From Candidatus Uhrbacteria bacterium (GTDB lineage Bacteria > Patescibacteriota > Patescibacteriia > JACPHY01): a stretch of 64,000 nt of DNA. Below the pieces are notes generated by a model. The model was not told the origin of the DNA. It saw nothing but the letters and a program-made list of their open reading frames with translations, and did no database searches. Made by a program: the position numbers and the translations under genes. The stretch covers positions 596 to 64,595 of the forward strand of contig JACPHY010000002.1 of the NCBI GenBank assembly GCA_016188355.1, given 5' to 3'. This document shows, piece by piece, positions 1 to 39,563 of this stretch (position 1 is the stretch's first letter; every line of letters starts with the position of its first letter).

Positions 1-42
1 CGCCACTACGTCTCCACAGCCAACAATCCCCCTTCCGTAACC

Positions 43-132
43 GTGTCATTTCGAGCGAAGCGAGAAATCTCACCCGCCACACTCATGGGCCATGGGTGAG
101 ATTTCTCGGCGCAGACTCCTCGAAATGACACG
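43..132 (-). terminator. Nested inverted repeats immediately downstream of ksgA (inner 14-bp perfect stem gagaaatctcaccc...gggtgagatttctc; outer arm gtgtcatttcgag/ctcgaaatgacac); candidate terminator or structured RNA
   Basis: Palindromes read directly in the sequence; they follow the ksgA stop at 158 on the minus strand; no clear U-tract. Confidence 0.35.
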
Positions 133-157
133 AAAAATCGCAAACGCAATACATGCC

Positions 158-1156
158 TCATCTTCCCACCGCCTTTGCCAATGCAATCCATTGTGCGAGG
201 GTGAGGGTTTCCGGACGTGCAGTCGGATCAATCCCCACACCCACGCAGATCGCATCCGCTTCCGAGCGGTCGCAAGCGGCAATGGTCCGTATGGAGGTGC
301 CGATCTGCTTCCGTCGTCCCGCAAACGCCATGTGGACAAATCGAAGAAACTGATCCCGGGAGAGCGGCTGCAGGAGGTCGGCCAACGCCTCGGGAGATCG
401 TATCTCGGTGAACTGCACGACCGCGCCCTCCACCTTCGGGGGTGGCCAAAAGTGCGACGCCGGCACCCGCACCACGCGGCGCGCGGTAGCATGGAGTTGC
501 GTGAGTACGGTCAAAAATCCCACCGATCCGTCAGCGCCCACCAAACGATCCACCACCTCTTTCTGGAGCAGGAGCACGATGCGTTCCGGCGGAGGGATCG
601 CGCCTGCCGCGATCTGATCGAACAGCACCCGCAAAAAATCACTGGTGATCTGATACGGAAGATTCGCGGCCAGTTTCCAGGAATGCTGGGACGATGGACT
701 CCCGAGGCGGCCATGTAAGGCCGCTACTACGTCCGAAGGATATGTTGCTAGACGTAGAGGCGGGGCTACGTCCCCGCCCTCCGGGGCGATGCCACCGTGC
801 ACCGATTCGAGCGGCCAGAGAGAACCGCGTTCACGTCCGGAGAGTACCCGCAACGCATCACCTGCTACAATTTCCACCCACCCAAACGGAGCAACGATTT
901 CCTGGAGCACCGGAATCACCTGGCGATCCATCTCAATGGCAATGAGACGACCGACGCGAGGAGCAAGCGCAGTGGTGAGCACCCCAAACCCTGGACCCAC
1001 TTCGAGAATGGTATCTGCCGGCTGGGGATCCACTGTCGTCACGATCTCCGCTAGTGTGCCCGCATGAATCAAAAAATGCTGCCCCAACGACCGCTCGGGC
1101 TTTTTCCCCGCGCGGATGCAGAGTGCTTTGAGGACGGGAGGGGAAAGGAGATTCAT
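158..1156 (-). CDS. rsmA: 16S rRNA (adenine-N6)-dimethyltransferase RsmA/KsgA, carrying a ~35-aa in-frame insertion encoded by a REP doublet
   Basis: Motifs SLGQHFL, LEVGPGFGVLT (SAM binding) and ANLPYQITS in the ORF translation; start taken at the internal Met (MNLLSPPVL...), since the upstream ORF extension runs into REP sequence. Confidence 0.8.
   Translation of the reverse strand: MNLLSPPVLKALCIRAGKKPERSLGQHFLIHAGTLAEIVTTVDPQPADTILEVGPGFGVLTTALAPRVGRLIAIEMDRQVIPVLQEIVAPFGWVEIVAGDALRVLSGRERGSLWPLESVHGGIAPEGGDVAPPLRLATYPSDVVAALHGRLGSPSSQHSWKLAANLPYQITSDFLRVLFDQIAAGAIPPPERIVLLLQKEVVDRLVGADGSVGFLTVLTQLHATARRVVRVPASHFWPPPKVEGAVVQFTEIRSPEALADLLQPLSRDQFLRFVHMAFAGRRKQIGTSIRTIAACDRSEADAICVGVGIDPTARPETLTLAQWIALAKAVGR
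721..790. repeat. REP-like GC-rich hairpin doublet (BIME-like) embedded in-frame within ksgA
   Basis: Sequence gaggcggggctacgtccccgcc plus ccgctactacgtccgaagg matches the intergenic REP family at 1211-1264, 1987-2045 and 5318-5375; the minus-frame translation gives IAPEGGDVAPPLRLATYPSDVVA, which is exactly the KsgA insertion. Confidence 0.6.
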
Positions 1157-1169
1157 GCGTTCTCTGTTT

Positions 1170-1264
1170 GACGTAGGGGCGGGGTTACATCCCCGCCGCC
1201 CGTACAGTGCACCACCTACACCACCGAGGCGGGGACGTAGCCCCGCCACTACGTCCGGAATAAC
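1170..1264. repeat. REP cluster: hairpin GGGGCGGGG-ttacat-CCCCGCC plus a REP-B unit (gaggcggggacgtagccccgccactacgtccggaataa)
   Basis: Near-perfect palindromes; the same units recur at 1391-1428, 1950-2045, 5318-5375, 721-790 and the window start (1-20). Confidence 0.7.
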
Positions 1265-1267
1265 CGC

Positions 1268-1332
1268 TACTCCTCCTCTTCCTTCCCCTCCAGGCGCTCG
1301 TATCGTCCTCCTGCTGCTTTCCAGCGGAGCAG
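1268..1332 (-). other. Duplicated fragment of the prfB 3' end (last ~19 codons, ...RYERLEGKEEEE) next to a REP element; a gene-remnant copy
   Basis: About 64 nt nearly identical (one mismatch) to 2042-2105, which encodes the true prfB C-terminus; REP elements abut both copies. Confidence 0.6.
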
Positions 1333-1339
1333 AGACGTG

Positions 1340-1428
1340 GACGTGGCCCCGCCACTACGTTCGGAATAATCATTACTCCTCTTCCTCCGAGACGTAGGGG
1401 CGGGGTTACATCCCCGCCCGGGCAGTAC
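1340..1428. repeat. REP elements (a half REP-B plus a GGGGCGGGGttacatCCCCGCCC hairpin) at the 3' end of the RAYT gene; the RAYT stop codon lies in the hairpin loop
   Basis: Direct sequence comparison with the other REP copies. Confidence 0.65.
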
Positions 1429-1915
1429 ACAGCGCCACCCAATCAAATACGGTCGATCCGCTGTACGGATACAGTTCCGGAGCCGCGCAGATCCCCTTTC
1501 GCACCGGATTCATCCAAATATATCGACAAACTGCTTCAATGTCCTCATCCAAACGAAGGAAATGATCGTAAAAACTCCGCTGCCAAATCTGACCTTGTAT
1601 GCCATGCGACCACGCAATACGCGTGGTGGACTGTTTGATGTCCGAAATGACCTGCATCACTGAATGATCGACATGAGGAGACAGGCAAAAGTGCGCATGA
1701 TCCGGCATGAGTACCCATGCGAATACGGTGATGTGGCGCTGCTCGAAGTATCCGCATAACGCACGATGACATGCGCAGGAAAATGCAGCATTACCGAAAA
1801 TAGGATTTCGATCGCGCACGGCAACTATCACAGAGACCACGGATGCGGGATCCGCATACCGATCGGGAGATAGACGAATATGCTTACGACGGAGGGCGTC
1901 GTTACGCACGTACAT
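1406..1915 (-). CDS. REP-associated tyrosine transposase (RAYT; IS200/IS605-like HUH Y1 transposase, TnpA-REP)
   Basis: HUH motif (MPDHAHFCL) and a C-terminal catalytic-Tyr region (YIWMNPVRKG); REP hairpins flank it on both sides. Confidence 0.75.
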   Translation of the reverse strand: MYVRNDALRRKHIRLSPDRYADPASVVSVIVAVRDRNPIFGNAAFSCACHRALCGYFEQRHITVFAWVLMPDHAHFCLSPHVDHSVMQVISDIKQSTTRIAWSHGIQGQIWQRSFYDHFLRLDEDIEAVCRYIWMNPVRKGICAAPELYPYSGSTVFDWVALCTARAGM

Positions 1916-1949
1916 ATAACGTCGTCGCTACCTCTCCTGTACCCCGTGG

Positions 1950-2045
1950 CGTCCACGTAGGGCCGCCGCTACGCCCGGAGATCGATACACCGCCTACACC
2001 ACCGAGGCGGGGACGTAGCCCCGCCACTACGTTCGGAGCAATCAC
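1950..2045. repeat. REP cluster between the RAYT start and the prfB stop
   Basis: cgtccacgtagggccgccgctacgcccgg and acaccgcctacaccaccgaggcggggacgtagccccgccactacgttcgg match the REP-B family. Confidence 0.65.
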
Positions 2046-3185
2046 TCCTCCTCTTCTTTCCCCTCCAGGCGCTCGTATCGTCCTCCTGCTGCTTTCCAGC
2101 GGAGGTAGGCTTCGATGAAGGGATCCAACTCGCCCTCGAGGAGCGCTTCTGGGTTATTGGTTTCGTGACGGGTACGCAAGTCCTTGGCGAGGTGGTACGG
2201 GTGCAGCACGTAGCTTCGAATTTGATTCCCCCAGGCCACTTCGCGGAATTCGCCACGGAGTTTTTGCTTTTCGGCGGTGCGGCGCTCCAATTCGCGCTGT
2301 TCGAGACGCGCATGGAGGACGCGCATGGCGGTTTCCTTATTCTGCTGCTGCGAACGCTCATTCTGGCAGGAAACGGTGATGCCGGTCGGCAGGTGGACGA
2401 CGCGCACGGCCGAGTACGTTGTCTGCACGCCTTGGCCGCCATGACCAGACGCGAGAAACGTATCAATACGGAGGTCCTTGGGATCGATGGCAACCGTTGG
2501 TGCATCGCCGAGGTCCGGGAGCACTTCGACTAACGCAAATGACGTATGCCGCTGATGATCCGCATCAAAAGGCGAGAGGCGCACTAGCCGATGCACGCCC
2601 GCCTCACTGCGGAGGAGTCCGTATGCATGCCGACCGCGCACCTCGACGAGCACGGACTTAATGCCCGCCTCTTCTCCCCGCGATTCATCCACAATGCGTG
2701 CTCGCCACCCCCGGTGCTCGCAGTATCGGAGGAGCATCCGGAGCAGCATGCCCGCCCAATCCTGCGCTTCAGTGCCCCCAGCACCCGCATGCACGGCAAC
2801 AATCGCATCGCGCACATCGTACGGATCACTCAGCAAGGTGTCGATTTCATGTTGCCGAAATCGCGCCTCGAGCGCCGCGTACTGTTGCTCCAATTCCTCC
2901 CGAAAATTCTGCGTCTGATCCGCAACATCGAGCGCGATCAACTCCGCGAGGTCACGCGCCTCATGTTCCAGTCCTCGCCACACCGCCGCCTCCTCGCGCA
3001 ATCCCGCAAGCTCTTGACTTCGCATCCGCGCATTCGCCTGGTCCTTCCAAAATTCCGGCGCACTCACCGCGCGTTCTAATTCCGCAATCTGCGCTTCTTT
3101 GCGATCGAGGTCAAAGCAACCTCCCCGCCGCGGCAATCCGGGCGTGGAGGTCGTCGATTGATTTCTGGAGTTCTGCGATGGTCAT
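2042..3185 (-). CDS. prfB: Peptide chain release factor 2 with programmed +1 ribosomal frameshift
   Basis: SPF and GGQ motifs in the long frame; an upstream 24-codon ORF (MTIAELQKSIDDLHARIAAAGRLL) starts at ATG 3185-3183 and ends at CTT TGA C (~3116-3110), preceded by a GGGGAGG SD-like element as in the E. coli prfB frameshift site; the long ORF (from TTG 3136) continues in +1. Confidence 0.9.
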
Positions 3186-3197
3186 ATCAAGCCAGGA

Positions 3198-4472
3198 TCA
3201 TTCGGTCGGAAATTCCCCAAGCTGCACCGTCAGTTTCCGTTCTTTGCCGGCACGAAGGATGGTGAGGGTCACGCGATCTCCTGGCTTCTGTTTCGCGATC
3301 AGCCGTGCGAGGGGGCGGGATTCCGTGATCGGCTCGCCGGCGACCGCAATCACGATGTCGTTCTCCCGGATTCCCGCACGATCGGCTGGGCTACCCGGCA
3401 CGACCGCGATATCCGTTGGCGCATCTCCTCGCACCACGAGCGCACCTGCTTTCACGGGTAGCTTCTGCGCAGTTGCCAATCGATCGGTAATGGCAAGGTA
3501 TCGCACGCCGAGCCAGGGTCGGATTATTTTGCCATCCCGAATCACGCTCTCGACGACCTGTTTTGCAACATTGATGGGAATAGCGAACCCGAGGAGTTGC
3601 CCCTCCTCACTCACGGCGGTATTCACGCCCACGACCTGGCCGTGCAAATTGAGCAGCGGCCCGCCGGAATTACCCGGATTGATCGCGGCGTCCGTTTGAA
3701 TCGCCTCATCGATCACTTCGCTCGACCCTCCCGAATCTCCCGCGATGACCCGACGATTGATGCCGGAGATGACGCCCTTCGTCACCGTATTCCGAAACTC
3801 CGAGAGCGCGTACCCGATCGCAATCACCGTTTCGCCCGTCTGGATGGAATCCGAATCTCCCAGCGCCAACACCGGGAGCGGCCCCTGTTTGGGATCGATA
3901 TCAATCTTGAGCACCGCAAGATCGTTCACCGGATCTTTCGCGAGTACCTTTGCCGAAAATTCCCGATCATCATTGAGAATCACCGCGTATTCGGCGTCCG
4001 TATCACGAACCACGTGTCGATTGGTGAGCACGTACCCATCGGACGTCACGAGGAAACCAGATCCGCCGCCCACCTGTCGCTTGCCTTCCGGAGCACCCGG
4101 AAATTGCGGCATGGGTACCGGCGGCGCAAACGGAATACCAAATCGGAAAAAATCATCAAACTCAAAGGCATTCCCCCGCGGGATATTTTTTAGGTCTTTC
4201 CGCACCACAATACTCACGACCGCAGGCGACGCGCTCCGCACGACCGCAATCGTTGCGGATTCCTCATCCAGTGCAGCGGGCACCGCTGGCGCATCCCGAG
4301 ACACGGCCGGCGCATTCGTCAGACGGTTGAGCGATGGGATCGTCTGCGCGAGACCCGCGAGCTGTCCCGTGGACACCAACACGCCGCCCGCAATACCCGA
4401 TATACCGCCCACCAGTAGACCAATAATCCCCGCCACGATCAGAACTTGTTTATCACGAAAGGAAGTGTCCAT
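3198..4472 (-). CDS. htrA: HtrA/DegP-family periplasmic serine protease with PDZ domain
   Basis: N-terminal TM segment, trypsin-like GNSGGPL active-site Ser motif, C-terminal PDZ-like region. Confidence 0.85.
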   Translation of the reverse strand: MDTSFRDKQVLIVAGIIGLLVGGISGIAGGVLVSTGQLAGLAQTIPSLNRLTNAPAVSRDAPAVPAALDEESATIAVVRSASPAVVSIVVRKDLKNIPRGNAFEFDDFFRFGIPFAPPVPMPQFPGAPEGKRQVGGGSGFLVTSDGYVLTNRHVVRDTDAEYAVILNDDREFSAKVLAKDPVNDLAVLKIDIDPKQGPLPVLALGDSDSIQTGETVIAIGYALSEFRNTVTKGVISGINRRVIAGDSGGSSEVIDEAIQTDAAINPGNSGGPLLNLHGQVVGVNTAVSEEGQLLGFAIPINVAKQVVESVIRDGKIIRPWLGVRYLAITDRLATAQKLPVKAGALVVRGDAPTDIAVVPGSPADRAGIRENDIVIAVAGEPITESRPLARLIAKQKPGDRVTLTILRAGKERKLTVQLGEFPTE

Positions 4473-4780
4473 ACATTACCCATAATATACCATCCCCGCA
4501 CTGCCACGCCCTCACTCCGGAGGAGCGATCGCTTGCGGATCCGACCTCCTGGACCAGAGTATCCGCCGATCGCTCCATCACTCCGGATGACGCGGTGGCA
4601 CGGGACGACCACCGGACGCGGATTCCGTCCGCAGGATTGCGCCACCGCCCGCGCCGCACGGGGCGCGCCCACGGCACGCGCAACGCCCGCGTACGTCATC
4701 ACCCGGCCACGCGGAATGCGCGCCAGCACCGCCCAAACACGGCGGTCGAAGGCGGAGGGCACCGCGCGTCGCTCACGCAT
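4439..4780 (-). CDS. Short methylated-DNA-protein-cysteine methyltransferase (MGMT/Ogt C-terminal DNA-binding domain only)
   Basis: PCHRVI active-site motif and a GGY...G tail; 113 aa from the internal Met; overlaps the nrdR end and htrA start by a few nt. Confidence 0.55.
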   Translation of the reverse strand: MRERRAVPSAFDRRVWAVLARIPRGRVMTYAGVARAVGAPRAARAVAQSCGRNPRPVVVPCHRVIRSDGAIGGYSGPGGRIRKRSLLRSEGVAVRGWYIMGNVWTLPFVINKF

Positions 4781-5270
4781 CCGCCGCGCGTCGCCGCGCG
4801 GTGCGGGTGCGGGGAGATTTCCGGCGCTCGAGCGCATCGAGGACCTCTCGAAAACTCCGAAGGTCATTGAAGGATTCATACACGGAGGCAAATCGCACGT
4901 ATGCCACCTCATCCGCTTTCCGCAGATGGCGGAGCACGAGGTCACCGATCTCCGTGGAGCGCACCTCCGGCTTCCGAAGGAGTTGAATATCGCGTTCGAT
5001 TGCCGCAACGGTCCGCTGGAGCTCCTCCGAGGTAATGGGACGCCGCTCGAATGCCTTCCGTAGTCCGGCAACGAGCTTCTCACGACCATACGGCTCACGA
5101 CGACCATCCCGTTTGATCACGGTCAACTCCAAAATCGCCGGCTCCTCCATGGTGGAAAACCGAAACGCACACCGAATGCACTCCCGCCGACGGCGAATAA
5201 TCATACCATCGCTCGACATGCGGGTATCCGTCACCTTTGTATCTTCGTGATGACATTTAGGGCAATTCAT
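4773..5270 (-). CDS. nrdR: Transcriptional repressor NrdR (Zn-ribbon plus ATP-cone)
   Basis: MNCPKCHHEDTKVTDTR...IRRRRECIRC zinc ribbon; VAYVRFASVYESF ATP-cone signature. Confidence 0.85.
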   Translation of the reverse strand: MNCPKCHHEDTKVTDTRMSSDGMIIRRRRECIRCAFRFSTMEEPAILELTVIKRDGRREPYGREKLVAGLRKAFERRPITSEELQRTVAAIERDIQLLRKPEVRSTEIGDLVLRHLRKADEVAYVRFASVYESFNDLRSFREVLDALERRKSPRTRTARRRAADA

Positions 5271-5317
5271 ACAGCGCAGGCAAACCTCCCCCACTTCGCC
5301 ACGGCTTCGCGGGACAA

Positions 5318-5375
5318 GTACCACCTACACCGCCGAGGCGGGGACGTAGCCCCGCCGCTACGTCCGGAATAATTA
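5318..5375. repeat. REP-B element in the nrdR leader region
   Basis: taccacctacaccgccgaggcggggacgtagccccgccgctacgtccggaataattac matches the REP family. Confidence 0.65.
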
Positions 5376-5581
5376 CTCATCCTCTTGCAATGACAACGAG
5401 GGATGGTGGAGATCTCTCATCGCCCAGCGCTCCTCGAGACGACACAAGGGTCGGCCTGTCTTCTTCCCCGAGCACGTCCTCAGCTGCGCTCTGATTCATG
5501 CGCACGAATCAAAAACGGATGGCCGCACAGGTAATCCATGATCGAAAGAGTACCGCATTTCTCGCGCATCCTCAATCATAC

Positions 5582-5612
5582 AAGAAAGAGAGGCCTCACA
5601 CCTCTCTTTCTT
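5582..5612 (-). terminator. Perfect 12-bp hairpin (aagaaagagagg...cctctctttctt) downstream of ftsZ; candidate terminator
   Basis: Inverted repeat read in the sequence, followed by gcttgtttcc on the plus strand. Confidence 0.4.
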
Positions 5613-5660
5613 GCTTGTTTCCGGAATGTGGGAAGACTGCATCCGAGGTCATCGATTCAC

Positions 5661-6896
5661 TTACCCGAGCTTCCGCCGAATGAATGCGGGGATCTCGAGA
5701 TCATCATTGACCGCGGGAGTCGCGGCGACTGGCTCTGGTTCTTCCTCGAGAAAATCATCACCGTATGCACGAGGTATTTCGCGTACTGTCGCAGCTGTGG
5801 TCGCGGGAGCGGGGCTGGCGCGTTCTGGCGCCTTTCCCGTAGCCGCCGGTTCCTCGTTTTTCCCAAAATACTTCGGCGGGCGGTACGGGGGTTGCCGCTC
5901 GAGGAACGCGACGTCTGGCTTGGCAATCGGCTTCCCGGGAGCAGGAGGATCGAAACCGGTCGCCACCACCGTCACCCGGAGCTCCTCCTTGAGACTTTCA
6001 TCAATAATCGTCCCGAAAATAATCTTCGCATTCGGGTCCGCGGATCCGGTGATAATCTTCGCCGCTTCATTCACCTCATGCATGGTGAGATTCGGTCCAC
6101 CCGCCACCGTGAAGAGAATGCCGCGCGCACCTTCGATAGAAATTTCGAGGAGCGGACTCGATACTGCCGCACGCGCTGCCTCAACTGCACGATTTTCTCC
6201 CGACGCGGCGCCAATGCCCATGAGCGCGGATCCGGCGTCCCGCATGATCGCCTTCACATCGGCAAAGTCGACGTTGATGAGTCCTGGGGTCGTGATGAGC
6301 TCCGCAATGCCGCGCACGCCCTGCTTCAAAATGTCGTCGACGATCTCGAACGCGTCGAGGAGCGTCGTCTTTTTGTCGATAATCGAAAGGATGCGATCAT
6401 TGGGAATCGTAATCAATGCGTCCACGCGACTCCGCAAGTCTTCATGAGCGCGCTCCGCGATGGAACTGCGCTGTGCGCCCTCAAAACTAAACGGCTTCGT
6501 CACCACGCCAATGGTGAGGCAGCCGAGCTCTCGCGCAATTTCCGCAATCGGCGGCCCCGCTCCCGACCCTGTTCCCCCGCCCAATCCGCACGTCACAAAC
6601 ACCATGTCGGTGCCCTTGAGCGCCTCGCGAATTTCGTTCTGGCTCTCCTCTGCCGCTTTCTTCCCGACCTCGGGATCCATACCCGCACCCAGTCCTCGGG
6701 TGATCGCCTTCCCCAGGTGCACCTTCATGGGCGCGAGACTCTGATGCAGCGCCTGAATATCTGTATTCGCGGCAATAAACTCCACGCCGTGGAGCTTCGC
6801 ACGAATCATGCGGTTGAGCGCGGAGCCTCCGCTGCCGCCAACCCCGATCACCTTAATCTTCGCAAAGGTATCAATTTTTGGCTTCACTTCGCCCAT
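5661..6896 (-). CDS. ftsZ: Cell division GTPase FtsZ
   Basis: GGGTGSG tubulin signature and the VIGVGGSGGSALNRM N-terminus. Confidence 0.95.
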   Translation of the reverse strand: MGEVKPKIDTFAKIKVIGVGGSGGSALNRMIRAKLHGVEFIAANTDIQALHQSLAPMKVHLGKAITRGLGAGMDPEVGKKAAEESQNEIREALKGTDMVFVTCGLGGGTGSGAGPPIAEIARELGCLTIGVVTKPFSFEGAQRSSIAERAHEDLRSRVDALITIPNDRILSIIDKKTTLLDAFEIVDDILKQGVRGIAELITTPGLINVDFADVKAIMRDAGSALMGIGAASGENRAVEAARAAVSSPLLEISIEGARGILFTVAGGPNLTMHEVNEAAKIITGSADPNAKIIFGTIIDESLKEELRVTVVATGFDPPAPGKPIAKPDVAFLERQPPYRPPKYFGKNEEPAATGKAPERASPAPATTAATVREIPRAYGDDFLEEEPEPVAATPAVNDDLEIPAFIRRKLG

Positions 6897-20000: not shown

Positions 20001-22014
20001 CCGCTCCAAAATGCTCACCGCGAATGGTCACGTACTGTCCGAATCCACCGCGACGAGGAGTGATCTCCTGAATGCGCGGAATGATCGGTTCCGGATCGCG
20101 AGTGAACCGAACGGCATTGGATGTCTTGGTGCCATTCGCCACACGAACCTCCACCAGTCCCTCGGCGATCACCGGGACGCGCACCTGAATCGCCGTGGCG
20201 CTCCATGCCGACGTCTCCGCAGCGAGATCACCAAAATACACGGCGTCCTCTGCTCCCCGCGTCGCACCAAACTGCACACCCGATACCGCAATCACCGCAC
20301 CCAATTGCCCGTGTCCCGGATCCAATGCGCATAGCCCCGGTCGCTGCGTGGTGTTCCTCCGAAAATCCTCAATGGTCGATCCACGCGCATCGTCCGTGCG
20401 ATCACGGAATGCGGGTATATCGGAAGTCACGACCTGTAGTGGACCGTTCGGTGCATTTTGCGGAACCACCACAATCACCTGCGTGTCCGACCATGCGGAG
20501 CTGCAGGACGGCGGCAGTGATGCGGTCACATCATCCGCATCGCCATCTTGCCCGAGGAACACGATACTCCCCGGCACCGTACCAAATCCGCTCCCACGGA
20601 TGGTGAGGTAGTTCCCCGGAGCACCGTTTGGCGCAACGATCAATTCGGTGCCCGCGGGCGCATCTTCTCGCCGCGCAAACGTTTCTCCCGTTGTTCGGCT
20701 CACGAGCGCTTGCGGGGAGACATCGGTAATGAGCGGTCCGTCGTCACAACGGCAGGAGGCGGTATGACACCGGAGTCCTTGCGTGCAGGATCCTGGCTCA
20801 CACTGTTCGGTTGCCGCGTTCGCATCGCATCGCGCACCGATACCTGACGGTCCTGGACCCACCGCACAGGCGTCGGCGAGCAAGCACTGACCCGTCGAAC
20901 AACAGGCCGACTGTGTACACTGCGCGTTCGCGCTGCAGGTAACGGTAAACGGATAACCATTCGAGGACTGCGCGCCGCGCACCACGCGAATCTCGCCACT
21001 CAACGCGCCAGTTGGCACATTTACCGTTATGTTGGTCGCCGACCACGTCACCACCGATGTCGCATCGATGCCCCCGCCAAATTGCACATTTCCTTCCCCT
21101 CGCGTCTCCCCGAAGAGCTTCCCCTCCATCGTCACCACAGTCCCCTCCGGTCCCTCGAGCGGCGTCAAGCAGGCAATTTGTGGACCAAGGATTTCTGTAT
21201 TCACCTGGAAATTCACCGTCCCGGAAGACAGGGCACCACCAGCGGCGGTCACTACCACCCCATATGAACGCCCTGATGGCAACGTCGGAACCTCTACCAC
21301 AATCAAATTATCCGACCAATTCGGCACCCCACTGCAGGCAACCACCGGTGCCACCGTGCCTCCGATACGCACCGCAGATTGTCCGTCCACGAAGGACCCG
21401 AAACGGAACCCACGGACAGTAACGTACGATCCGACCGGACCACTCACCGGGGTCACACTGCACACGTGGGGCGCGGTACCACCGGGATCACGGCATCCCG
21501 CAAGACGATTGCCCTGCGGGGGAAGCGTATTGTCCCCGGGAGGACCCGCGAACATCACTCCTCCGGACGTTCCGGTCGCCTGCTGCAATCTTCCCAAGAC
21601 GAAATGGGCAATGCTGAAGGACATGAGGATGATGGCGAGGCCAATCACCCCATTCGTGATCGTTCGTTTCGCGCGGACCACTTTCTCCTCATTCCCGCTC
21701 GCGGTCATCCAGAGGAAACCGCCGGTGAGCATGATGCCAACCGCAATGATGCCGAGGAAGCCGAGGAAGGCGCGAATGATCTTTGCGATGGTGATGCGGA
21801 TGTCTTGTACGGCAAGACCGGTCGCCGTTCCGTAATCAATGCCAGTATTCACCTGTGCCACAACCGGTGACGCGGCAACGCACCACACCAACACGAGCGC
21901 GACCGGGAACGCCCATCGTCGCACATTGCGCCACGTGAACGCGCGCCGAAGAAGTCGGCGAGCGCGCAATGCAGCGAGGAGATGAAGCACAGTACGCATG
22001 CGAGTCATGATCAT
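11068..22014 (-). CDS. Giant secreted/surface protein (~3650 aa): signal peptide, VirB2/TrbC-pilin-like two-helix N-terminal module, multiple IPT/TIG domains, many Myxococcus-type cysteine-rich repeats (CGDG...GEECD)
   Basis: Single uninterrupted ORF; probable start at ATG 22014 (MIMTRM...), 2 nt after the upstream gene stop; repeated CGDGI/CGNGQ...E(E/Q)CD motifs; VTPVSGPVGSYVTVRGFRFG-type IPT units. Confidence 0.7.
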   Translation of the reverse strand: MIMTRMRTVLHLLAALRARRLLRRAFTWRNVRRWAFPVALVLVWCVAASPVVAQVNTGIDYGTATGLAVQDIRITIAKIIRAFLGFLGIIAVGIMLTGGFLWMTASGNEEKVVRAKRTITNGVIGLAIILMSFSIAHFVLGRLQQATGTSGGVMFAGPPGDNTLPPQGNRLAGCRDPGGTAPHVCSVTPVSGPVGSYVTVRGFRFGSFVDGQSAVRIGGTVAPVVACSGVPNWSDNLIVVEVPTLPSGRSYGVVVTAAGGALSSGTVNFQVNTEILGPQIACLTPLEGPEGTVVTMEGKLFGETRGEGNVQFGGGIDATSVVTWSATNITVNVPTGALSGEIRVVRGAQSSNGYPFTVTCSANAQCTQSACCSTGQCLLADACAVGPGPSGIGARCDANAATEQCEPGSCTQGLRCHTASCRCDDGPLITDVSPQALVSRTTGETFARREDAPAGTELIVAPNGAPGNYLTIRGSGFGTVPGSIVFLGQDGDADDVTASLPPSCSSAWSDTQVIVVVPQNAPNGPLQVVTSDIPAFRDRTDDARGSTIEDFRRNTTQRPGLCALDPGHGQLGAVIAVSGVQFGATRGAEDAVYFGDLAAETSAWSATAIQVRVPVIAEGLVEVRVANGTKTSNAVRFTRDPEPIIPRIQEITPRRGGFGQYVTIRGEHFGAEMGRITFTRGTERYDIVPRFPDACRQDWWRANEITIRIPANREEWAPVGQSPPPSDFSALGQFEIRVHPRGTDVASNAVPFTVTTDPATPGICAIAPHRGPARTPVTIVGERFGSAAGTMRFHDQVIVGASDRDQFAWTEQKIQGILVPILAKTGPFRLWVTGENPDAPTATNRGSNPVQFEVRDCRAGGTANACPSGQICCGNGTCVASGTRCESEPNVGAYQWTFATGAVPRVPRVVESCGAFSPSPWDQQGTGGSACTNANVRVQFSMSMGDPTSSSEFLSAGAARGIQVFRCAGGRNVATDFGGGFERATDVTAWTALDPQHVQATFINTEDTAAHGGTGVLRLTKRTAAVADSVAYRRQPVAVGLPRDATVDRIAYAIEAPASLVTDTGGTTYTARVMVRGRNAQRNPNARVGIVIGRAGGPNVTDAGWWQQSAREVVLENTWQELATSITFDRGPNAVASGFVRIYLTAPAPDAEQGSDEVYAADLDDLEVVRQGDACVIREFATTGAVTVSDAGGRTNHRGNIVNVAPPNGGWSPGATYEVVVYGSDTLEQIGATTASKLALRSAGAQQLALDGDGDGQEGGNYRFRFQTRASAEPCAVREILMTPQSAVATQRVEPGATPQQVLSATQSADLPSLVHISAAGVNDPTTCTTLALERVDAWRVVQPPSPPAVAGRSYVAGDVDGSGRWCAVESECGVIPCVQDAQCASLGATCDTGAGHCRTNFCGTNRRCENLPTTITARAHWETPTQPVRVQAIVAAGNREVSGVSDVAVRFERPRVTRVIPTESCQEACTNTVVAAVTNVPLAASAAFEVRMYQCAQENCRRDALTAEIPLGPANVQVCPARESGGNDPCAGTRVTEEPHLRISPPELGENTPYRVLLTSEVTSAWGVPLEGLNFDSDGDGSLDARSWIFRTRGGRCEVQKVETIPAALTFSVVGERAWVTAVPTSAPDRCAPEGQPLRADSLPWGWSIRDIAVAGFTTVTTAGTFAAPGAPTETTLTRTTIAASSACTLQCLPTGSVRITGICGNGLRELGEECEAEATGFPSSCNPENCLLRGARPVARGGTCGDGDIDAGEECDLQNNTMPAWCDPASCLRLGARAGGSRCGTPVTPGRPAEPLGDGEDCDDGNTENGDGCSSQCLHEGTRPQYDPVRAPNGVLARCGDGIVADGRGGRVAGGEECDWHDDPRSVWVSQGCDFEHCIFTGTRSIVDTPPGTCGNGQLDRGEQCDNGAVGVCAPGSRAGRTCASDGDCGGASCVERQPVSGDGCSARCLFEGASIAWRDPVSGAPHPALCGDGIAFDGSGGRPFGGEQCDGGNVADPPDPAQIVQAVGGGVADAEGMQSTELIAGVRGADGRVAIQLQCGYSRDTQCLTPAVNGVDRSGCCRARPAIVSGSEMPDPGATNICINAVVTARFTERMDPASVGIVVDAVTSASTYRGAILEHCPSGRVCTLDSDANWRPVEATPILREVQEEDRVVSELIFETPKGLVPSRLHRVRFFGAADEDAAGKPIALRSMDGVRFGGAAWTFMVGGRYCTIETLQMQPASYLFQRVGQRMDFPFSVSPMGRLPSGKLQLVGPVAGSYEWRYQWQSTASDVADIDPTSPGRCNDGPHASCFFHPAAAVKNGQGLALAQLDITVNTINAPAGPFSARAPFRVFLCENPWPAVTNAATWQPYPAMGQCVSGSMRANVCTANSDCMNGFTCVGADPSPLTDEHISFAYCRDAGTRKVCRAPGTIEPVDARSCGSDAECMAPLKCLLALRDDLPAIAPNVVARQIAGVQSGNGRDELRKEFFFLPRGASYCSESGDRCEPDVPGTCPPGQFCRSGQDALGLRLYENEGHVRADRWFQQQGFTDANTPITVDGSRGVRAGRSTYLHVPNVRAGSVFTNLAVLSFNDGAVAETQEVLQQILEGIRFATNLSDQNVRMCVPQGIVAAGAIFGRCTTSGAACARDLDCGTAGGTCAGISCTSDLDCRVGTAQGSCRAPKDKLMRDVQRMEDLVELREVVQRFQRRCTITPRSCAADGDCPAGEQCMALGPDLNAGTFIPGMSVSRWPSWQQELGAQLGSTLPSDPLNQFGGRCTSIRRCGGVGPDCVNDAACAAQPEGQRRCEEDRLFDPQTCWSERAGTYSCPAGSYVYQYRRLADGTTELGSQLEVVAGSSIVPALRTGIRVDGGICATPNGTTYGASGRCGDGIQQAGEACERGQVGTEERTEDGRRQSRHRTCSVTCQWSDWSAWSSQCGNAIVDAGEQCDVGPRGGRVPAAGGTAPGITSGTAYECSPNCTWRMSGPATYMRCGDEIIQAAYGEQCDGPANRATTPSASSAQSQYACTAADAPRPCRATGGYCGDREIQTANQEQCDGDESRSCVVENNGNLQWVGWTGSQWANSSGGWRSYGDGSTPSTITLRGTIRSQNGGAGDVKLLLVTQNVESSGGDPGTVSREVMEASLRPEQVLSDLNPTGTRGGRGVYHRIRVALDGNAVGTIWALASSQLQHNELVLRGVASGTTDTPHQITLTWDNDWNNGGSAWACQNDRTRRFATQESCAAASPTCGSGGCIRDYYDANLRIERVAFEATQVRTCGAPQTPNACKVLDANGSATNGAPNAGWGACQVASARCGNGVVEDGREGRADFGEQCDDGGRGRCINDPQRVCRSHAECGSGGVCDRDADACTSQCKHNVCGDGAVLASTCVAGDAGKLGQPCRSSTECGRNGRCAAEQCDVGVGNWRAACSGAQDAQCVPNARCAYGRTCNYCLTNTCTVATKRGGFCGDGIKQDGANGPEACDIAAADRATSPWNGPLCSLTCTSQCPGAFDRVTADFGATGIDPSRGTAVANGAELPIRLPAARLYDTLTFDVLLEEGVPDATLVLRELGAGGAELGRVGIAPTDAVRPKLMERQQIVLRKPVNVPGAAGYSSTRTPTDTLGRFGSSRPLELILVPQFTASGSVVRHVRISQPATFQCSGPPYPPSP

Positions 22015-22016
22015 CG

Positions 22017-24260
22017 TTACGGAATGGGTGCGCAGTTCGTTATTGCACCCACGCACCGCTCGCCACCCCGTACCCCACGTGGTCCACGGGGATTCTCCGC
22101 GACGGTAAAGAAGCAATTCTGGTAGAGGTCGCGCGCATTCGATCCCGCACGTACGCGGTACTCCGGAATATCGAGACCCGACTGCTGCTCCCGGAGATCC
22201 GCATGGCGGATCACCGCACGGGTCGCATCAGTCACATCATCCACATCGCGCGTCGTATCCTCGTGCTGCATATCCGATGTATGCCAGAGGCACCCGCGTC
22301 CCGTAGCAGGATCACATCCATTCCCTCCTCCGGTCATTTCCTCCAGATGCAATTCACTCGCGAGATTCCCGCTCATGAGCTTCGAGAAGAGCACCTCCAC
22401 CGGTGCAAATGCAGATACTTCATCCACCAGCTGTAGCGAAGCGCCGGAATCGGCCTGATCGTACACCCGACGGGATCGATCTGAGCGATTGAAATGGACC
22501 ACCTGGACGATCTCGGGAGCGGTGAGGTCCAGCCGATCGTTGGTGAAGAATGTCCACTGCGCACTATCCGAGGTAGATTGATTCACCGCAGCCGAACCCT
22601 TGATTGTAAAACAGGGCGATGTCGACGGGCACATCGGCGCTCCCGGACCCGTGGCTTTGGTGTCCATGTTCCCATCGAGTGAATTGCCTGCCGCGTCCAT
22701 GACTCCGGAGAAGGGCAATCCCGCAGGACCTCCCGCATCCAATCGCGCCGCCTCAATCAGCGCACGCAATTCCGCGTTCTTCGGAAGGCAATACACCGTT
22801 CCCCCACACGAATTCTCTCCGCATGCCGCATCGGTCGTGAATTCTACGGTTTTATATTGATTGCTGATCGTAAACGTACCCGGTACCCGCCGTCCCTGCT
22901 CCGTCACCGCGAGATAGCGAAATCCACGTAATGCATCGGGTGATCCTGTGGGGCCGATATCTGCAGCGGTGACGACACCCGAGGTCACGGTCGGATCCAT
23001 AGCCTCATCGAAATTCACCTGCACCACCACATTGATGGGCTGGTCGGGCACTCCGACAACATCGCCCGATACATCGCGCCCTCCATCAGGAAATGGCACC
23101 ACGCTCTGCACCTGCGGAGACCTATCATCCGTATGGATGGTCACCGTGAAATCCCAAGTGTACCCATCGCGGAACGCGCCAGTGAACATGTCTTCCGGGG
23201 TGCCGTCTCCCCGTCGCGTCGTCTTCTTGATGACATTGGTGAGCCGCACCACATAGGCGGTGGGCTGCGACGCATTCCCCAGCAGCTGTCGCTCTGCTGC
23301 TCCCGTTTGGCTATTCGTACGAACCCGCAGCACATCGCCCACCACCTCCGTGGCGACCGGCGTCAACACAATGGTTCGCCCATCCGGGGACATCGCTACA
23401 CCGACGGGCACCAAATTTGCCGCAGCGGCAGTGAACTCTGCCAATCGCGACTCCCGTGCCTGCGGAGTGAGCTTCGTGGGGTCCACATTGGCGCCCACCG
23501 GGGACACCTGAATCGCCTCCGGAAGCGCAAGATCGCGATAATTATCAAACTGCCGCACATCATCGCCGGATGTGCCGAGCGAATCCGGATTTCCCGGACT
23601 CTGATACGTATTCGCGATAAAGGTCGCGGGATCCACTGGCGATCGAAAGGTCACAAAAATACGCACATTGCGCGGCGCATCCCCCTGTCCGCGCGCGGGG
23701 TAATGACTCTCAATCGGCCCCGCACCCAATGCACCGGATAGCGCTACGGAATCTCCAAATCCTCCGGCTGTTCGTACACCTCCTCCCCCACCCGCTGCCT
23801 CCTGCAATCTCCCCAAGACGAAATGGGCGATACTGAAGGACATGAGGATGATGGCGAGGCCAATCACCCCGTTCATGATCGTTCGTTTCGCGCGGACCAC
23901 CTTCTCCTCATTCCCTCCAGCGGTCATCCAGAGGAATCCACCCGTGAGCGTGATGCCAATCGCAATCACCCCGAGGAAGCCGAGGAAGGCGCGAATGATC
24001 TTTGCAATCGTGACCCGGATGTCTTGCGTGGCGAGGCCGGTGGCGGAGCCGAAATTCAGTCCTTCCTGCACCGTCGATCCGGCATCTGCCGCCCAAACAC
24101 CCACCGGAATCCACACCACAACCGCCATGCCTACCGCGCACGCCAGCGCCAGTCCCGAGCGAGGAACGGCAAACAACCGCCGGGACCATACGGCCGCCCG
24201 CGATCGCCAACCGACTACCCCAGAAGAAGCGTGCGATGTGCCGAACTGCAAAACAGGCAT
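22017..24260 (-). CDS. Large (747-aa) secreted protein paralog sharing the same N-terminal signal peptide plus two-helix module as the giant protein; translationally coupled to it
   Basis: Residues ~74-155 are ~90% identical to residues ~97-180 of the giant protein; stop TAA 22019-22017 followed by the giant gene ATG. Confidence 0.65.
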   Translation of the reverse strand: MPVLQFGTSHASSGVVGWRSRAAVWSRRLFAVPRSGLALACAVGMAVVVWIPVGVWAADAGSTVQEGLNFGSATGLATQDIRVTIAKIIRAFLGFLGVIAIGITLTGGFLWMTAGGNEEKVVRAKRTIMNGVIGLAIILMSFSIAHFVLGRLQEAAGGGGGVRTAGGFGDSVALSGALGAGPIESHYPARGQGDAPRNVRIFVTFRSPVDPATFIANTYQSPGNPDSLGTSGDDVRQFDNYRDLALPEAIQVSPVGANVDPTKLTPQARESRLAEFTAAAANLVPVGVAMSPDGRTIVLTPVATEVVGDVLRVRTNSQTGAAERQLLGNASQPTAYVVRLTNVIKKTTRRGDGTPEDMFTGAFRDGYTWDFTVTIHTDDRSPQVQSVVPFPDGGRDVSGDVVGVPDQPINVVVQVNFDEAMDPTVTSGVVTAADIGPTGSPDALRGFRYLAVTEQGRRVPGTFTISNQYKTVEFTTDAACGENSCGGTVYCLPKNAELRALIEAARLDAGGPAGLPFSGVMDAAGNSLDGNMDTKATGPGAPMCPSTSPCFTIKGSAAVNQSTSDSAQWTFFTNDRLDLTAPEIVQVVHFNRSDRSRRVYDQADSGASLQLVDEVSAFAPVEVLFSKLMSGNLASELHLEEMTGGGNGCDPATGRGCLWHTSDMQHEDTTRDVDDVTDATRAVIRHADLREQQSGLDIPEYRVRAGSNARDLYQNCFFTVAENPRGPRGVRGGERCVGAITNCAPIP

Positions 24261-36716: not shown

Positions 36717-39563
36717 TCACGGACAGGTCAACCCTTCATCGGTCTGACCGTCGCAATCGTTGTCGATGCGATCGCACTGTTCGACACCGCCAGCGGTGAG
36801 GAAGCATCCGTACTCGCAGCCGTTGTCGATGCGACCATCCACGTTGTTCCAGCCCGCACGGCAGCCGAGGTTTGCGCAGACGCCGCTCACGCAGGATGCG
36901 GATTGCACGTTCGGGAGCGCACCGCAGTCATTACCGCAACGGCCACAATGCCGTACGTCGGTCATGACGTCGAAATCCTCATCCGCTCGAGCATCGCAAT
37001 CGTCATCGAGTCCATTGCAGACCTCGGGCACGCGATCCTGCGCGCCCACGCACGATCCCCAGAGACGGCTCGGCAGGCATTCCTGCAGGCCGACATGGCA
37101 CGTGCCCACGCCGTTCAGGACCGGATCCACCCCACACGGCCGACGGTCGCCCGGCGTACAGGTGCACCCTTCGTCCACACTCCCATCGCAATCGTCATCG
37201 ATGAGATTGTCACAGACTTCGACCGGAGCGGGGCTCGGATACTGTGATCCCCCGATGTCCGCGGAGCATCGGAAGGCCACGGTGCCCGCACACTCGTATG
37301 CACCCATCCCGCACGCGCCGATGCCGCGACAGGGCGCTCCGATGAAGAACCCCTCATCAACCTGACCGTCGCAATCATCATCGATGCGATTGCAAAGCTC
37401 CGGCATGCCGGGACGCACGCTCAGCGTCGCGTCGTCGCAATCCCCCTCGCACGGCGTATAGCCGTCCATGTCCCCGTCCCGCTCGTTGAAGGGCATCGCG
37501 CCCGAGCAGTCATCATCGCGTCGATTGCACAGTTCCGTCACCGGCGACTGCGTGCCGACGCACGGACCCTGCGCGCCACTCACGCACGTCTGCGTACCGA
37601 GCCGGCAATCGCCGCGGCAGGTCTGCGTGGCCGTATCGCAAAATGGCGCAGGAGGACCGCACACGATGCGTGCCCCATCCTCGCAGGCACAGCCCTCATC
37701 GATCGATCCGTCACAGTCGTTGTCCCGCCCATCGCATTGCCGGGTCGGTCCATCCGCCGTATCCGGAGACGGCGTGCACTGGTATTCGCATCCGTTCGCC
37801 GAATTGCGATCCGCATCCACAAATCCGGAGAGGCACGCACCGAGGAGGCAGGTCTCCCGAGCACAGGTCGCCGCGGCATTCGGGAACGCACAGGCATTGC
37901 CACAGGCACCGCAATGCCGCACATCGGACGCCACGACACTCACCGGCGCGTCATCGACGACGCGATTGCAGTCGTTGTCGATACGGTCGCAGATGTCGAT
38001 CGGTGCCGGCGTCGGATACTGGGACGCACCCGGATCGGTCGAGCAACGGCTCAGGAAGAGACCCGCGCACTCGAACTGGCCGTCCGGACACGCACCGATA
38101 CCACGGCACGGGAAACCCACGAAGAAATCCTCGTCCACATCCCCGTCGCAATCGTCATCCGACCGATTGCAGGATTCGAACTGCGCCGGATTGGTGAAAC
38201 GATCGCGATCGTTGCAATCCCCCTCGCAGATACGATAGCCATCTCGGTCGGCATCGGCTTCGTTCGCCGGGACGACGCCATCACAGTCATCGTCCACGCC
38301 GTTGCAGGACTCGATCGCCGCAGGCGGCACCGCACCCTCGCAATCGTCCCACCGAGATCCCATCGTTTCCCCATTCTCGATCACGCACGTCTGGTGCCCC
38401 ATTCGGCATCGGCCCACCCCATCGAGCTGCCAATCTGGCGCACCGTCATTGTTCCGATCGGGCAAACCGCAAGGCCGCTGTTCGTTCGGAGTGCACACGC
38501 ATCCGTTGTCCGCCATGCCATCGCAATTGTCGTCGAGGAAATTGCCGCAAACTTCTGACCGCACCGGAATGACCGGACACTGCTCACAGCCATTGGACGT
38601 ATCCCCATCCAGGTTCCGCGCGTCCAACCGACAGCCGCGGAACTCGCAATGCCCATCCACGCACGCCACGTGCGCATTGGGGATACGCGATGCGCAATCG
38701 TTCCCGCAGCGACCGCAATGCAACGCGTCCGTCATGAGGTTGAACGTCTCATCGATCTGGCCGTTGCAGTTGTCATCGATGCGGTTGCAGATTTCGGTGA
38801 CCGTGGGACCGGTCGCGCCCTCGCACGTGCTCCAGGTGCCGTCCCGCTGGCAGGTCTGCACCCCAGGACTACATGCGCCCGCACCCGAACCGCATGGGCG
38901 ATCCGGTTCACCGAAGGTGCATTCGAATCCCTCATCCACCGCGCCGTCGCAGTTGTTGTCGTCGCCGTCCGAAATCTCGACGCCGCCATTCGTTCGGAAG
39001 CAGGCGTACTCACACCCATCGCTGAGCGCGAGATTGATATTGTGGAATCCATCCGCACAGGTGACGAGCGTACACACACCGGCCACGCAGGACGTGCCAC
39101 CCGGCGCGGCATGGGGAATCTGTCGATCGCAGACCAACCCGCAGCGACCACAATGCTGCGGATCGCCCGCAAAATTGAATCCCTCATCAGCCTGGCCGTT
39201 CCCGTTGTTGTCGATACCGTCGCACACCTCGGCACCACCGGGCACGCACTGGCTGCTCTGGCAGGAAAATCCAGAGGCGCAGTCGCGGTCTTCACGGCAC
39301 TGCACCATGCAGAAGCTGCCTTCGCCCGGAATCACGCGGCACACGAGTGGCGCCACGCAATCGGAATTCCGATGACACGGTACCCGGGCACCTCCCACCG
39401 TCGATGTGGGTACGCCATGATTGGTCGGCGTACCTCCACCTGCATCGGGCAGCACGAAACCGCCGGTCGTTGCATCACTCTTGCAGCCCACCACGCTGCC
39501 GCTCCATACCGCGGCCACGACGAGCGCAGCCAAGCGGCTGGACGCCCACGCACTCATTTGCAT
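36717..39563 (-). CDS. Cys-rich lipoprotein with ~13 MopE-like putative metal-binding repeats (C.....DDDCDG..DE)
   Basis: GGAGGTG RBS followed by ATG at 39563; lipobox-like SVVGC signal; repeated CNRIDDDCDGQVDEGF-type units. Confidence 0.7.
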   Translation of the reverse strand: MQMSAWASSRLAALVVAAVWSGSVVGCKSDATTGGFVLPDAGGGTPTNHGVPTSTVGGARVPCHRNSDCVAPLVCRVIPGEGSFCMVQCREDRDCASGFSCQSSQCVPGGAEVCDGIDNNGNGQADEGFNFAGDPQHCGRCGLVCDRQIPHAAPGGTSCVAGVCTLVTCADGFHNINLALSDGCEYACFRTNGGVEISDGDDNNCDGAVDEGFECTFGEPDRPCGSGAGACSPGVQTCQRDGTWSTCEGATGPTVTEICNRIDDNCNGQIDETFNLMTDALHCGRCGNDCASRIPNAHVACVDGHCEFRGCRLDARNLDGDTSNGCEQCPVIPVRSEVCGNFLDDNCDGMADNGCVCTPNEQRPCGLPDRNNDGAPDWQLDGVGRCRMGHQTCVIENGETMGSRWDDCEGAVPPAAIESCNGVDDDCDGVVPANEADADRDGYRICEGDCNDRDRFTNPAQFESCNRSDDDCDGDVDEDFFVGFPCRGIGACPDGQFECAGLFLSRCSTDPGASQYPTPAPIDICDRIDNDCNRVVDDAPVSVVASDVRHCGACGNACAFPNAAATCARETCLLGACLSGFVDADRNSANGCEYQCTPSPDTADGPTRQCDGRDNDCDGSIDEGCACEDGARIVCGPPAPFCDTATQTCRGDCRLGTQTCVSGAQGPCVGTQSPVTELCNRRDDDCSGAMPFNERDGDMDGYTPCEGDCDDATLSVRPGMPELCNRIDDDCDGQVDEGFFIGAPCRGIGACGMGAYECAGTVAFRCSADIGGSQYPSPAPVEVCDNLIDDDCDGSVDEGCTCTPGDRRPCGVDPVLNGVGTCHVGLQECLPSRLWGSCVGAQDRVPEVCNGLDDDCDARADEDFDVMTDVRHCGRCGNDCGALPNVQSASCVSGVCANLGCRAGWNNVDGRIDNGCEYGCFLTAGGVEQCDRIDNDCDGQTDEGLTCP

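Follow-up and report, generated by a model that had tools for sequence, protein, structure and literature searches.

The 64-kb stretch of DNA analysed here (the window) comes from the genome of a Candidatus Uhrbacteria bacterium, a member of the candidate phyla radiation (CPR), and carries between its prfB and rsmA genes a short cassette that is very probably a REPtron. This comprises an intact gene for a REP-associated tyrosine transposase (RAYT, or TnpA_REP) and inverted, cognate GTAG-tagged repetitive extragenic palindromic (REP) units; the REPs have multiplied locally and been copied along with their flanks, and the cassette was probably acquired horizontally. The REPtron is well formed and genuine, and every single phenomenon that it displays has a precedent. 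A first-pass annotation made from the sequence alone had described the locus; each element of its description proved real and its reading is supported. It had also suspected a CPR-like host, and database records agree: the RAYT is identical to MBI2482715.1 (annotated as "transposase [Candidatus Uhrbacteria bacterium]", on an 88,967-nt contig), RsmA next to it corresponds to MBI2482714.1, the best homologues of RsmA are all labelled Uhrbacteria, and the lineage is given as Patescibacteria group, Parcubacteria group. All counts of REPs and RAYTs given below apply within the window.

The RAYT gene (1406–1915, minus strand) looks intact and encodes 169 amino acids, predicted from sequence to form an HUH/Y1 single-strand DNA endonuclease–ligase. 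The first-pass annotation had read an HUH motif in PDHAHF and a catalytic tyrosine in YIWMNPVRKG, and alignment with E. coli TnpA_REP (4ER8)—the sole match in the Protein Data Bank (33 bits, phmmer)—bears out both, pairing H59-M60-H61, Y115, and N119 with H73-A74-H75, Y132, and N136. Contact with the GTAG tag in the E. coli enzyme is made by W94, Q95, E100, H101, and R104 (PMC6006769), the equivalents of which are W111, Q112, D117, H118, and R121; the change of glutamate to aspartate at the E100 position is known from RAYT subclasses 2.5 and 2.7 (PMC6006769). The HUH, tyrosine, asparagine, and GTAG-contact residues are all invariant in an alignment with 16 homologues. The suggested kinship with the Y1_Tnp/TnpA_REP family also stands up to profile comparison, with 99.2 bits against the NCBIfam model NF047646 (REP_Tyr_transpos; cut-off 80) over profile positions 4–146 of 146, 43.6 bits against Pfam Y1_Tnp (PF01797), and 28.5 bits against the IS200 transposase model, which is under its cut-off of 55. 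The gene is present in a single copy in the window (tblastn), and no tnpB adjoins it.

The window contains ten hairpins that are rich in GC and carry a GTAG tag. They fall into three sequence types and, together with a further unit truncated by the window start, occupy four sites within positions 1–5361. Type A (GTAGGGGCGGGGTTACATCCCCGCC), recovered by repeat search and pattern scans, lies on the plus strand at 1173–1197 (A1) and 1394–1418 (A2). Pattern scans place type B (GTAGnGGCGGGGCTACGTCCCCGCC) at 754–778 on the plus strand and at 1228–1252 (B1), 2006–2030 (B3), and 5337–5361 on the minus strand, with a degenerate copy, B2 (1334–1358, minus), in which one hairpin arm is broken where a copy of the prfB tail joins. 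Type C, which has a GGCGGCC-type stem, was found by the same scans at 706–730 and, with an imperfect stem, at 1948–1972, both on the minus strand; the truncated unit (1–14, minus) is downstream of rsmA.

The arrangement of these units around the RAYT gene defines the cassette (1394–2030, minus strand), which reads GTAG-REP B3, GTAG-REP C, RAYT, and inverted REP A2-CTAC. B3, which follows the prfB stop codon directly, and the type C unit at 1948–1972 are upstream of the gene on its own strand, and A2 sits at its stop codon on the other; the hairpins previously noticed on both sides of the gene are thus canonical GTAG-tagged REPs in inverted orientation. The observation that a REP loop closes the reading frame is equally sound, since the last codon (ATG, 1411–1409) and the stop codon (TAA, 1408–1406) both fall in the TTACAT loop of A2. 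Outside the cassette, A1 and B1 form a REPIN-like inverted doublet (1170–1256; REPIN, REP doublet forming a hairpin) with the GTAG tags outermost, and the type C and type B units at 706–730 and 754–778 form a head-to-head doublet (706–778) inside rsmA. The unit at 5337–5361 is the core of an extended REP B unit (5319–5389, minus) between ftsZ and nrdR, which is also present in the independent Logan contig L043 (2.3 kb). The sequencing run SRR12113422 holds a segment identical to the window. Further copies listed earlier at 5318–5375, at 721–790, and at the window start correspond to 5337–5361, 706–778, and 1–14. On the wider notion of dispersed REPs, the window weighs neither way: REPs occupy four separate sites, but all of these are within 5.4 kb of the RAYT.

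By published definitions, a GTAG REP has a GC-rich stem, paired throughout and no shorter than 7 bp, that is preceded on its 5′ side, at a distance of 0–2 nt, by GTAG or GTGG (PMC3733652; PMC6006769). Seven of the ten units consist of GTAG, 0–1 nt, and a 7–8 bp stem, the exceptions being 1334–1358 and 1948–1972, which single-stranded DNA (ssDNA) folding shows to be degenerate, and 706–730, with its 6-bp stem. The 6-nt loops (TTACAT, CTACGT) are within the range of 2–20 nt in one definition (PMC3733652) and 1 nt beyond the 2–5 nt of the other (PMC6006769). Most units fold as ssDNA into 7–8 bp GC stems with z about −2 to −3; weak folds are seen for 699–734 (only a 6-bp stem, z −1.6) and 5334–5365 (a competing fold, z −1.6). 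The doublet at 1165–1260 forms a single long hairpin (−29.6 kcal/mol, z −4.4) matched in stability by none of 200 shuffles, and that at 695–795 forms separate hairpins (z −2.2). The doublet spacer (1198–1227) was also considered as a remnant of a RAYT 3′ end, as expected of an internally deleted REPtron; this was rejected, the local alignment score of 9 being equalled by 262 of 2000 shuffles. An Rfam search of positions 1–6500 at E ≤ 1 matched nothing.

Comparison with a related Candidatus Uhrbacteria genome, L044 (GCA_016206015.1; ~78% nucleotide identity to the window), separates older REPs from window-specific sequence. Both genomes have the gene order htrA-prfB-rsmA. The prfB-rsmA spacer of L044 contains a REP B-REP A doublet orthologous to window 1170–1256, and its type C REP downstream of rsmA (at 3720) is orthologous to the fragment at 1–14, so these REPs were in place before the two lineages diverged. 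The window has three stretches without a counterpart in L044. The largest (2030–1393, 638 nt) runs from the GTAG of B3 to the CTAC of A2, with REP C and the RAYT gene in between. The second (1264–1369, 106 nt) consists of degenerate REP B and the prfB-tail copy, and the third is a net 126 nt inside rsmA. At the cassette junction, the window reads TCCGAAC, GTAG...CTAC, GTC TCGGAGGAAGAGGAGTAATGA, whereas L044 reads TCCGAAC TTC TCGGAGGAAGAGGAGTAATGA, with 23 of 23 nucleotides identical between the two after the right-hand junction.

In two more distant Uhrbacteria, L050 and L051, sua5 and, after it, a GIY-YIG or DUF559 gene separate prfB from rsmA, and neither a RAYT nor GTAG REPs occur at this prfB-rsmA locus. 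The sua5 gene and the GIY-YIG or DUF559/Vsr-like endonuclease gene together occupy 2930–4004 in L050 and 2723–3896 in L051. Selfish genes seem to have landed in the prfB-rsmA interval repeatedly.

The last 61 nt of prfB (encoding RF2; 2042–3185, minus strand) recur at 1269–1329 (minus) with 60 of 61 positions identical to their source, the native tail at 2044–2104, and the copy has a stop codon of its own (TAG, 1267–1269). A duplication of the prfB 3′ end adjacent to a REP had been proposed from the outset, and the copy is indeed joined to one: the repeat extends through the adjacent REP (1210–1280 versus 1988–2058, 89% identity) to ~120 nt in total, and at its far end the 61-nt copy meets the broken B2 arm. 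All four REP B units compared (1210–1280, 1316–1386, 1988–2058, and 5319–5389) have ~70 nt in common at 70%–89% identity, well beyond the 25-nt hairpin; between 5319–5389 and 1210–1280, identity is 83% over 71 nt. On the GTAG side, each of the four retains a remnant of the last prfB codons (EEE-stop) including the stop codon. Such a remnant is found even between ftsZ and nrdR, where 5366–5385 includes GAG GAT GAG TAA, and also beside the REP B of L044.

A possible source of this likeness, namely that the acidic end of RF2 was itself derived from a REP unit, was ruled out. The tail GKEE(D/E)E* is also present in relatives lacking the cassette, and prfB of the REP-free L050 ends in GKEEDEDE*; the acidic tail is thus native, and the flank was carried from a prfB-adjacent REP B copy to the other sites. 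The sequences show that REP B units were copied together with their flank, the 61-nt prfB copy being the largest case. The copy matches the native tail at 98% of positions. Between the native tails of the two genomes, window and L044, identity is ~85% (67-nt block), so the duplication is younger than the species split. We infer that the prfB-tail duplicate is a by-product of REP-associated rearrangement. Just past the duplicated segment, within prfB, stands a GTAG (2105–2108, plus strand) that is GTAC in both L044 and L050. The frequency of GTAG on the plus strand is 0.0015 per position, and the coincidence of the segment's end with this tag, which was noticed post hoc, is suggestive. Elsewhere in prfB, the canonical programmed +1 frameshift of RF2 is recognisable from the site CTT TGA C (3116–3110) and a Shine-Dalgarno-like GGGAGG, with an ATG start at 3185; the TTG start given in the mechanical list of open reading frames (ORFs) is therefore too far downstream.

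A REP doublet has also entered a coding sequence. The rsmA gene (ksgA; 158–1156, minus strand) contains a net 126-nt (42-codon) in-frame insertion within 682–842, which holds the head-to-head doublet. The closest RsmA (P0073, 290 amino acids, ~80% identical in aligned columns) is without these 42 residues, and RsmA proteins of other Uhrbacteria carry unrelated inserts of variable length at the same place. An AlphaFold2 model of the window RsmA (predicted local distance difference test, pLDDT, 85; predicted template modelling score, pTM, 0.84) falls below pLDDT 50 at residues 110–139 and to ~67 at 140–160, just before the strand bearing the NLPY motif. As the low confidence is confined to the insert segment, the insert is, according to the model, a tolerated surface-loop addition encoded by the REP doublet, with the methyltransferase fold kept. 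Precedents exist both for REP dimers within genes and for stop codons furnished by the ends of REPs (PMC3733652).

The composition and relationships of the cassette bear on its origin. The RAYT gene has a GC content of 52.2% against 60.8% for the window—the lowest of any 510-nt stretch in it—and 53.5% at third codon positions against ~65% in neighbouring genes, which favours horizontal acquisition. After the identical protein, the next homologues are 41%–46% identical, and those with names are from Dehalococcoidia or Proteobacteria; viral contigs were also searched for RAYT relatives and none was found. Homologues of 41%–43% identity at L045, L047, and L048 (Dehalococcoidia metagenome-assembled genome, MAG) are flanked by GTAG-GGGCGGGG...CCCCGCCC hairpins, which differ from the window REPs mainly in the loop. 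RAYT clade and REP type go together at these loci. The donor of the cassette was probably a lineage with RAYTs that likewise work with GGGCGGGG-stem REPs.

The REPs themselves have a wider distribution. When genome contigs were scanned for the REP consensus, the sole matches were exact copies of the type A 25-mer, at 42 loci (L001–L042) in Ratteibacteria, Omnitrophota, and one gammaproteobacterial MAG, with no Uhrbacteria among them. Only one of the 42 has a RAYT-like fragment (36% identity), and this is flanked by a different REP. The type A 25-mer is often paired at these loci with a GGGAGGGG-stem REP, and the genomes concerned hold several other families of GTAG hairpins. Type B occurs on four unrelated metagenome contigs that are otherwise dissimilar to the window, twice paired with a type C unit. 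Taken with the hairpins that flank the RAYT homologues, these matches place the window REPs in a widespread GTAG superfamily, in keeping with published accounts of tnpA_REP as patchily distributed and driven by transfer (PMC6006769).

How the REPs might have multiplied can be proposed by extension from the characterised TnpA_REP enzymes (PMC8266576, PMC3479197), chiefly those of E. coli, Stenotrophomonas, and Marinomonas. The RAYT would bind a folded REP hairpin on ssDNA and read its GTAG tag, using it either for recognition or for choice of the cleavage site. It would then cut beside the repeat through Y132, forming a 5′-phosphotyrosine link, and would either rejoin the strands or leave a 3′-OH able to prime copying, with the result that REPs and doublets multiply. 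In the window sequence, the REPs have multiplied only locally, as singles and doublets, at four sites within 5.4 kb.

Several points weigh against this interpretation as a REPtron acquired horizontally and multiplied locally. A genome-wide REP population is the usual hallmark of a RAYT, yet neither loose nor strict scans found any REP in the other 58.6 kb (5400–64000); the three hits of the loose GTAG-plus-hairpin scan (12474, 21255, and 54005) are unrelated 6-bp stems, and shuffled sequence yields 6–20 by chance. The C terminus of the RAYT is ~10 residues longer in the family alignment than those of its homologues, the extension being read from the REP, and cleavage and rejoining of ssDNA REPs by the protein would hold by analogy. 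REPs also stand at orthologous sites in L044, which has no RAYT at this locus, yet the RAYT of the window looks compositionally foreign. Old REPs and a foreign-looking RAYT sit awkwardly together; replacement of an earlier RAYT, or a composition that stays atypical in RAYT genes, would reconcile them. Lastly, the cassette difference could be a gain or a loss, with points on both sides. Gain in the window lineage is favoured by the atypical GC of the RAYT and by the fact that none of the three relatives has a RAYT at this locus. For loss in L044 speaks the sequence retained at the site, which elsewhere always precedes a GTAG-REP B; with ACGT at both junctions and inverted repeats at the ends, slipped-strand deletion without a transposase suffices to explain a loss.

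The same junctions raise the question of whether the cassette is itself mobile. As an autonomous unit, it would be a REP doublet with the RAYT inside, inserted or precisely excised by cuts immediately 5′ of the GTAG tags, and the prfB-tail copy would represent flanking DNA captured because the process read on as far as the next GTAG, as with IS91 or Helitrons. The difference from L044 does begin with GTAG and end with CTAC, alongside the 23-nt identical flank, and the cassette shares both of its ends with the neighbouring RAYT-less doublet (the A ends match at 28 of 28 nt and the B ends over ~120 nt). The atypical GC of the RAYT, its absence from the locus in more distant Uhrbacteria, and the fact that the duplicated prfB segment stops exactly short of a GTAG where L044 and L050 have GTAC all point the same way. 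However, only two genomes are compared, the difference can be read in either direction, and the GTAG coincidence was spotted post hoc; moreover, the ACGT at both junctions lets the boundary slide by 2 nt, and slipped-strand deletion across inverted REPs would give the same result. The literature, too, reports no evidence for mobility of tnpA_REP (PMC8266576), the characterised enzymes cut at CT or CA dinucleotides rather than AC|GT, and the GTAG tags lie on opposite strands at the two ends, unlike the ends of IS200/IS605 elements. On balance we regard an autonomous cassette as rather doubtful. The broader proposition that a whole REPtron gained horizontally by a CPR bacterium is or recently was mobile, with the breakpoints at both ends and at the end of the prfB tail immediately 5′ of GTAG, is likewise no more than a tentative one. 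If true, it would be the first comparative evidence of a tnpA_REP moving with its REPs, and would hint at the cut site.

An ordinary insertion sequence of the IS200/IS605 family, whose subterminal ends are the hairpins, would also account for the Pfam Y1_Tnp match, the hairpins at both ends, the atypical GC, and the position at a locus that in relatives repeatedly attracts selfish genes. Such an element is most improbable, given that the RAYT model is passed while the IS200 equivalog model is not (28.5 against 55), that the GTAG-contact residues specific to TnpA_REP are conserved, that the hairpins are GTAG-tagged, inverted, and also found gene-free as singles and doublets, and that there is one copy in 64 kb with no adjoining tnpB. 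Equally remote is the idea that the prfB-tail copy and the degenerate REP tandem are a mis-assembly of a repeat-rich region. The region is known from one MAG assembly only, REPs are short repeats able to tangle assembly graphs, and the independent Logan contig spans just 3100–5445. Nevertheless, the repeats are short (at most ~120 nt) and can be told apart in reads, since substitutions and a 3-nt indel distinguish them; the prfB, RAYT, and rsmA ORFs are all intact; and an independently assembled relative has the same REP doublet and flanks.

A REPtron with local REP multiplication is the best account of the locus, and its setting gives it some significance. RAYT/REP systems are statistically tied to larger genomes (PMC6006769) and have been characterised almost entirely in Proteobacteria; the complete, apparently functional REPtron of the window shows that a reduced CPR genome can host such a system too. 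REPtrons are apparently rare in CPR bacteria: no paper in the library searched ties RAYTs or REPINs to them, and a RAYT profile search gave no second CPR-labelled RAYT among the best 120 of 4281 matches, although most of these are unnamed and the result is weak evidence of rarity. The few, local repeats and a relative with three empty sites offer a rare before-and-after view of REP activity, taking in the presence or absence of a tag-bounded cassette, the copying of REPs with their flanks, and an in-frame insertion into a housekeeping enzyme. Knowledge of the RAYT family as such is unchanged; the locus is a simple natural substrate set for finding where and how the enzyme cuts.

The window also contains repeats that bear no relation to the REPs. 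Two direct repeats of 280 nt (21557–21836 and 23776–24055) are 85% identical, and units of 54–63 nt recur in series across 36724–39239 with start-to-start spacings of 183–1395 nt. A 91-nt near-perfect palindrome at 42–132 represents another repeat family (GTCATTTCGAGCGAAGCGAGAAATCTC...) with one copy in the window; one of its frames reads RFARNDT, which resembles FARNDK inserts in the RsmA of other Uhrbacteria (P0082, P0086).

Among known systems, the E. coli REPtron (TnpA_REP/YafM, 4ER8; RAYT group 2) shares with that of the window an HUH-Y1 fold family, the HUH, tyrosine, and asparagine residues, four of the five GTAG-contact residues, and a gene flanked by GTAG-tagged REPs in both orientations. 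The two are distant, at only 33 bits by phmmer, and differ in the aspartate that replaces E100 as well as in REP structure, the window REPs having short, perfect 7–8 bp stems without a bulge. E. coli also has hundreds of dispersed REPs, as opposed to ten within 5.4 kb. Stenotrophomonas maltophilia and Marinomonas sp. MWYL1 have group 3 REPtrons, which share with the window short, perfect GC-rich palindromes 0–2 nt after GTAG (PMC8266576). Marinomonas REPs are concentrated beside tnpA, which was read by the authors as recent arrival followed by local multiplication (PMC8266576), and the clustering of REPs beside the RAYT in the window follows this pattern. This likeness is one of description, and the hosts differ (Proteobacteria versus CPR), as do the 6-nt loops and the three REP types at one locus in the window.

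The REPINs of Pseudomonas fluorescens are likewise inverted REP pairs that form one long hairpin, as 1165–1260 does here near a RAYT that is single-copy in 64 kb (Bertels and Rainey, PMC3116915, PMC3337134); the window differs in having two doublets only, one of them intragenic, and no large population. The insert in rsmA resembles the intragenic REPs of Opitutus terrae and the Rickettsia palindromic elements (RPEs) of Rickettsia conorii, in which in-frame REP dimers add tens of residues to housekeeping genes and REP ends lie over stop codons, although the 42 residues here exceed the published 20–30 per REP dimer (PMC3733652). A further difference is that the host gene is rsmA, with the empty site documented in a relative whose RsmA is ~80% identical. 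Finally, Shyamala, Schneider, and Ames reportedly described in 1990 REP-mediated tandem duplications in Salmonella and E. coli with the join-point inside a REP. Those duplications are said to be large and to arise by recombination between distant REPs, whereas the extra DNA in the window is 106 nt with one end at a GTAG in prfB; in both, the join-point is in a REP.

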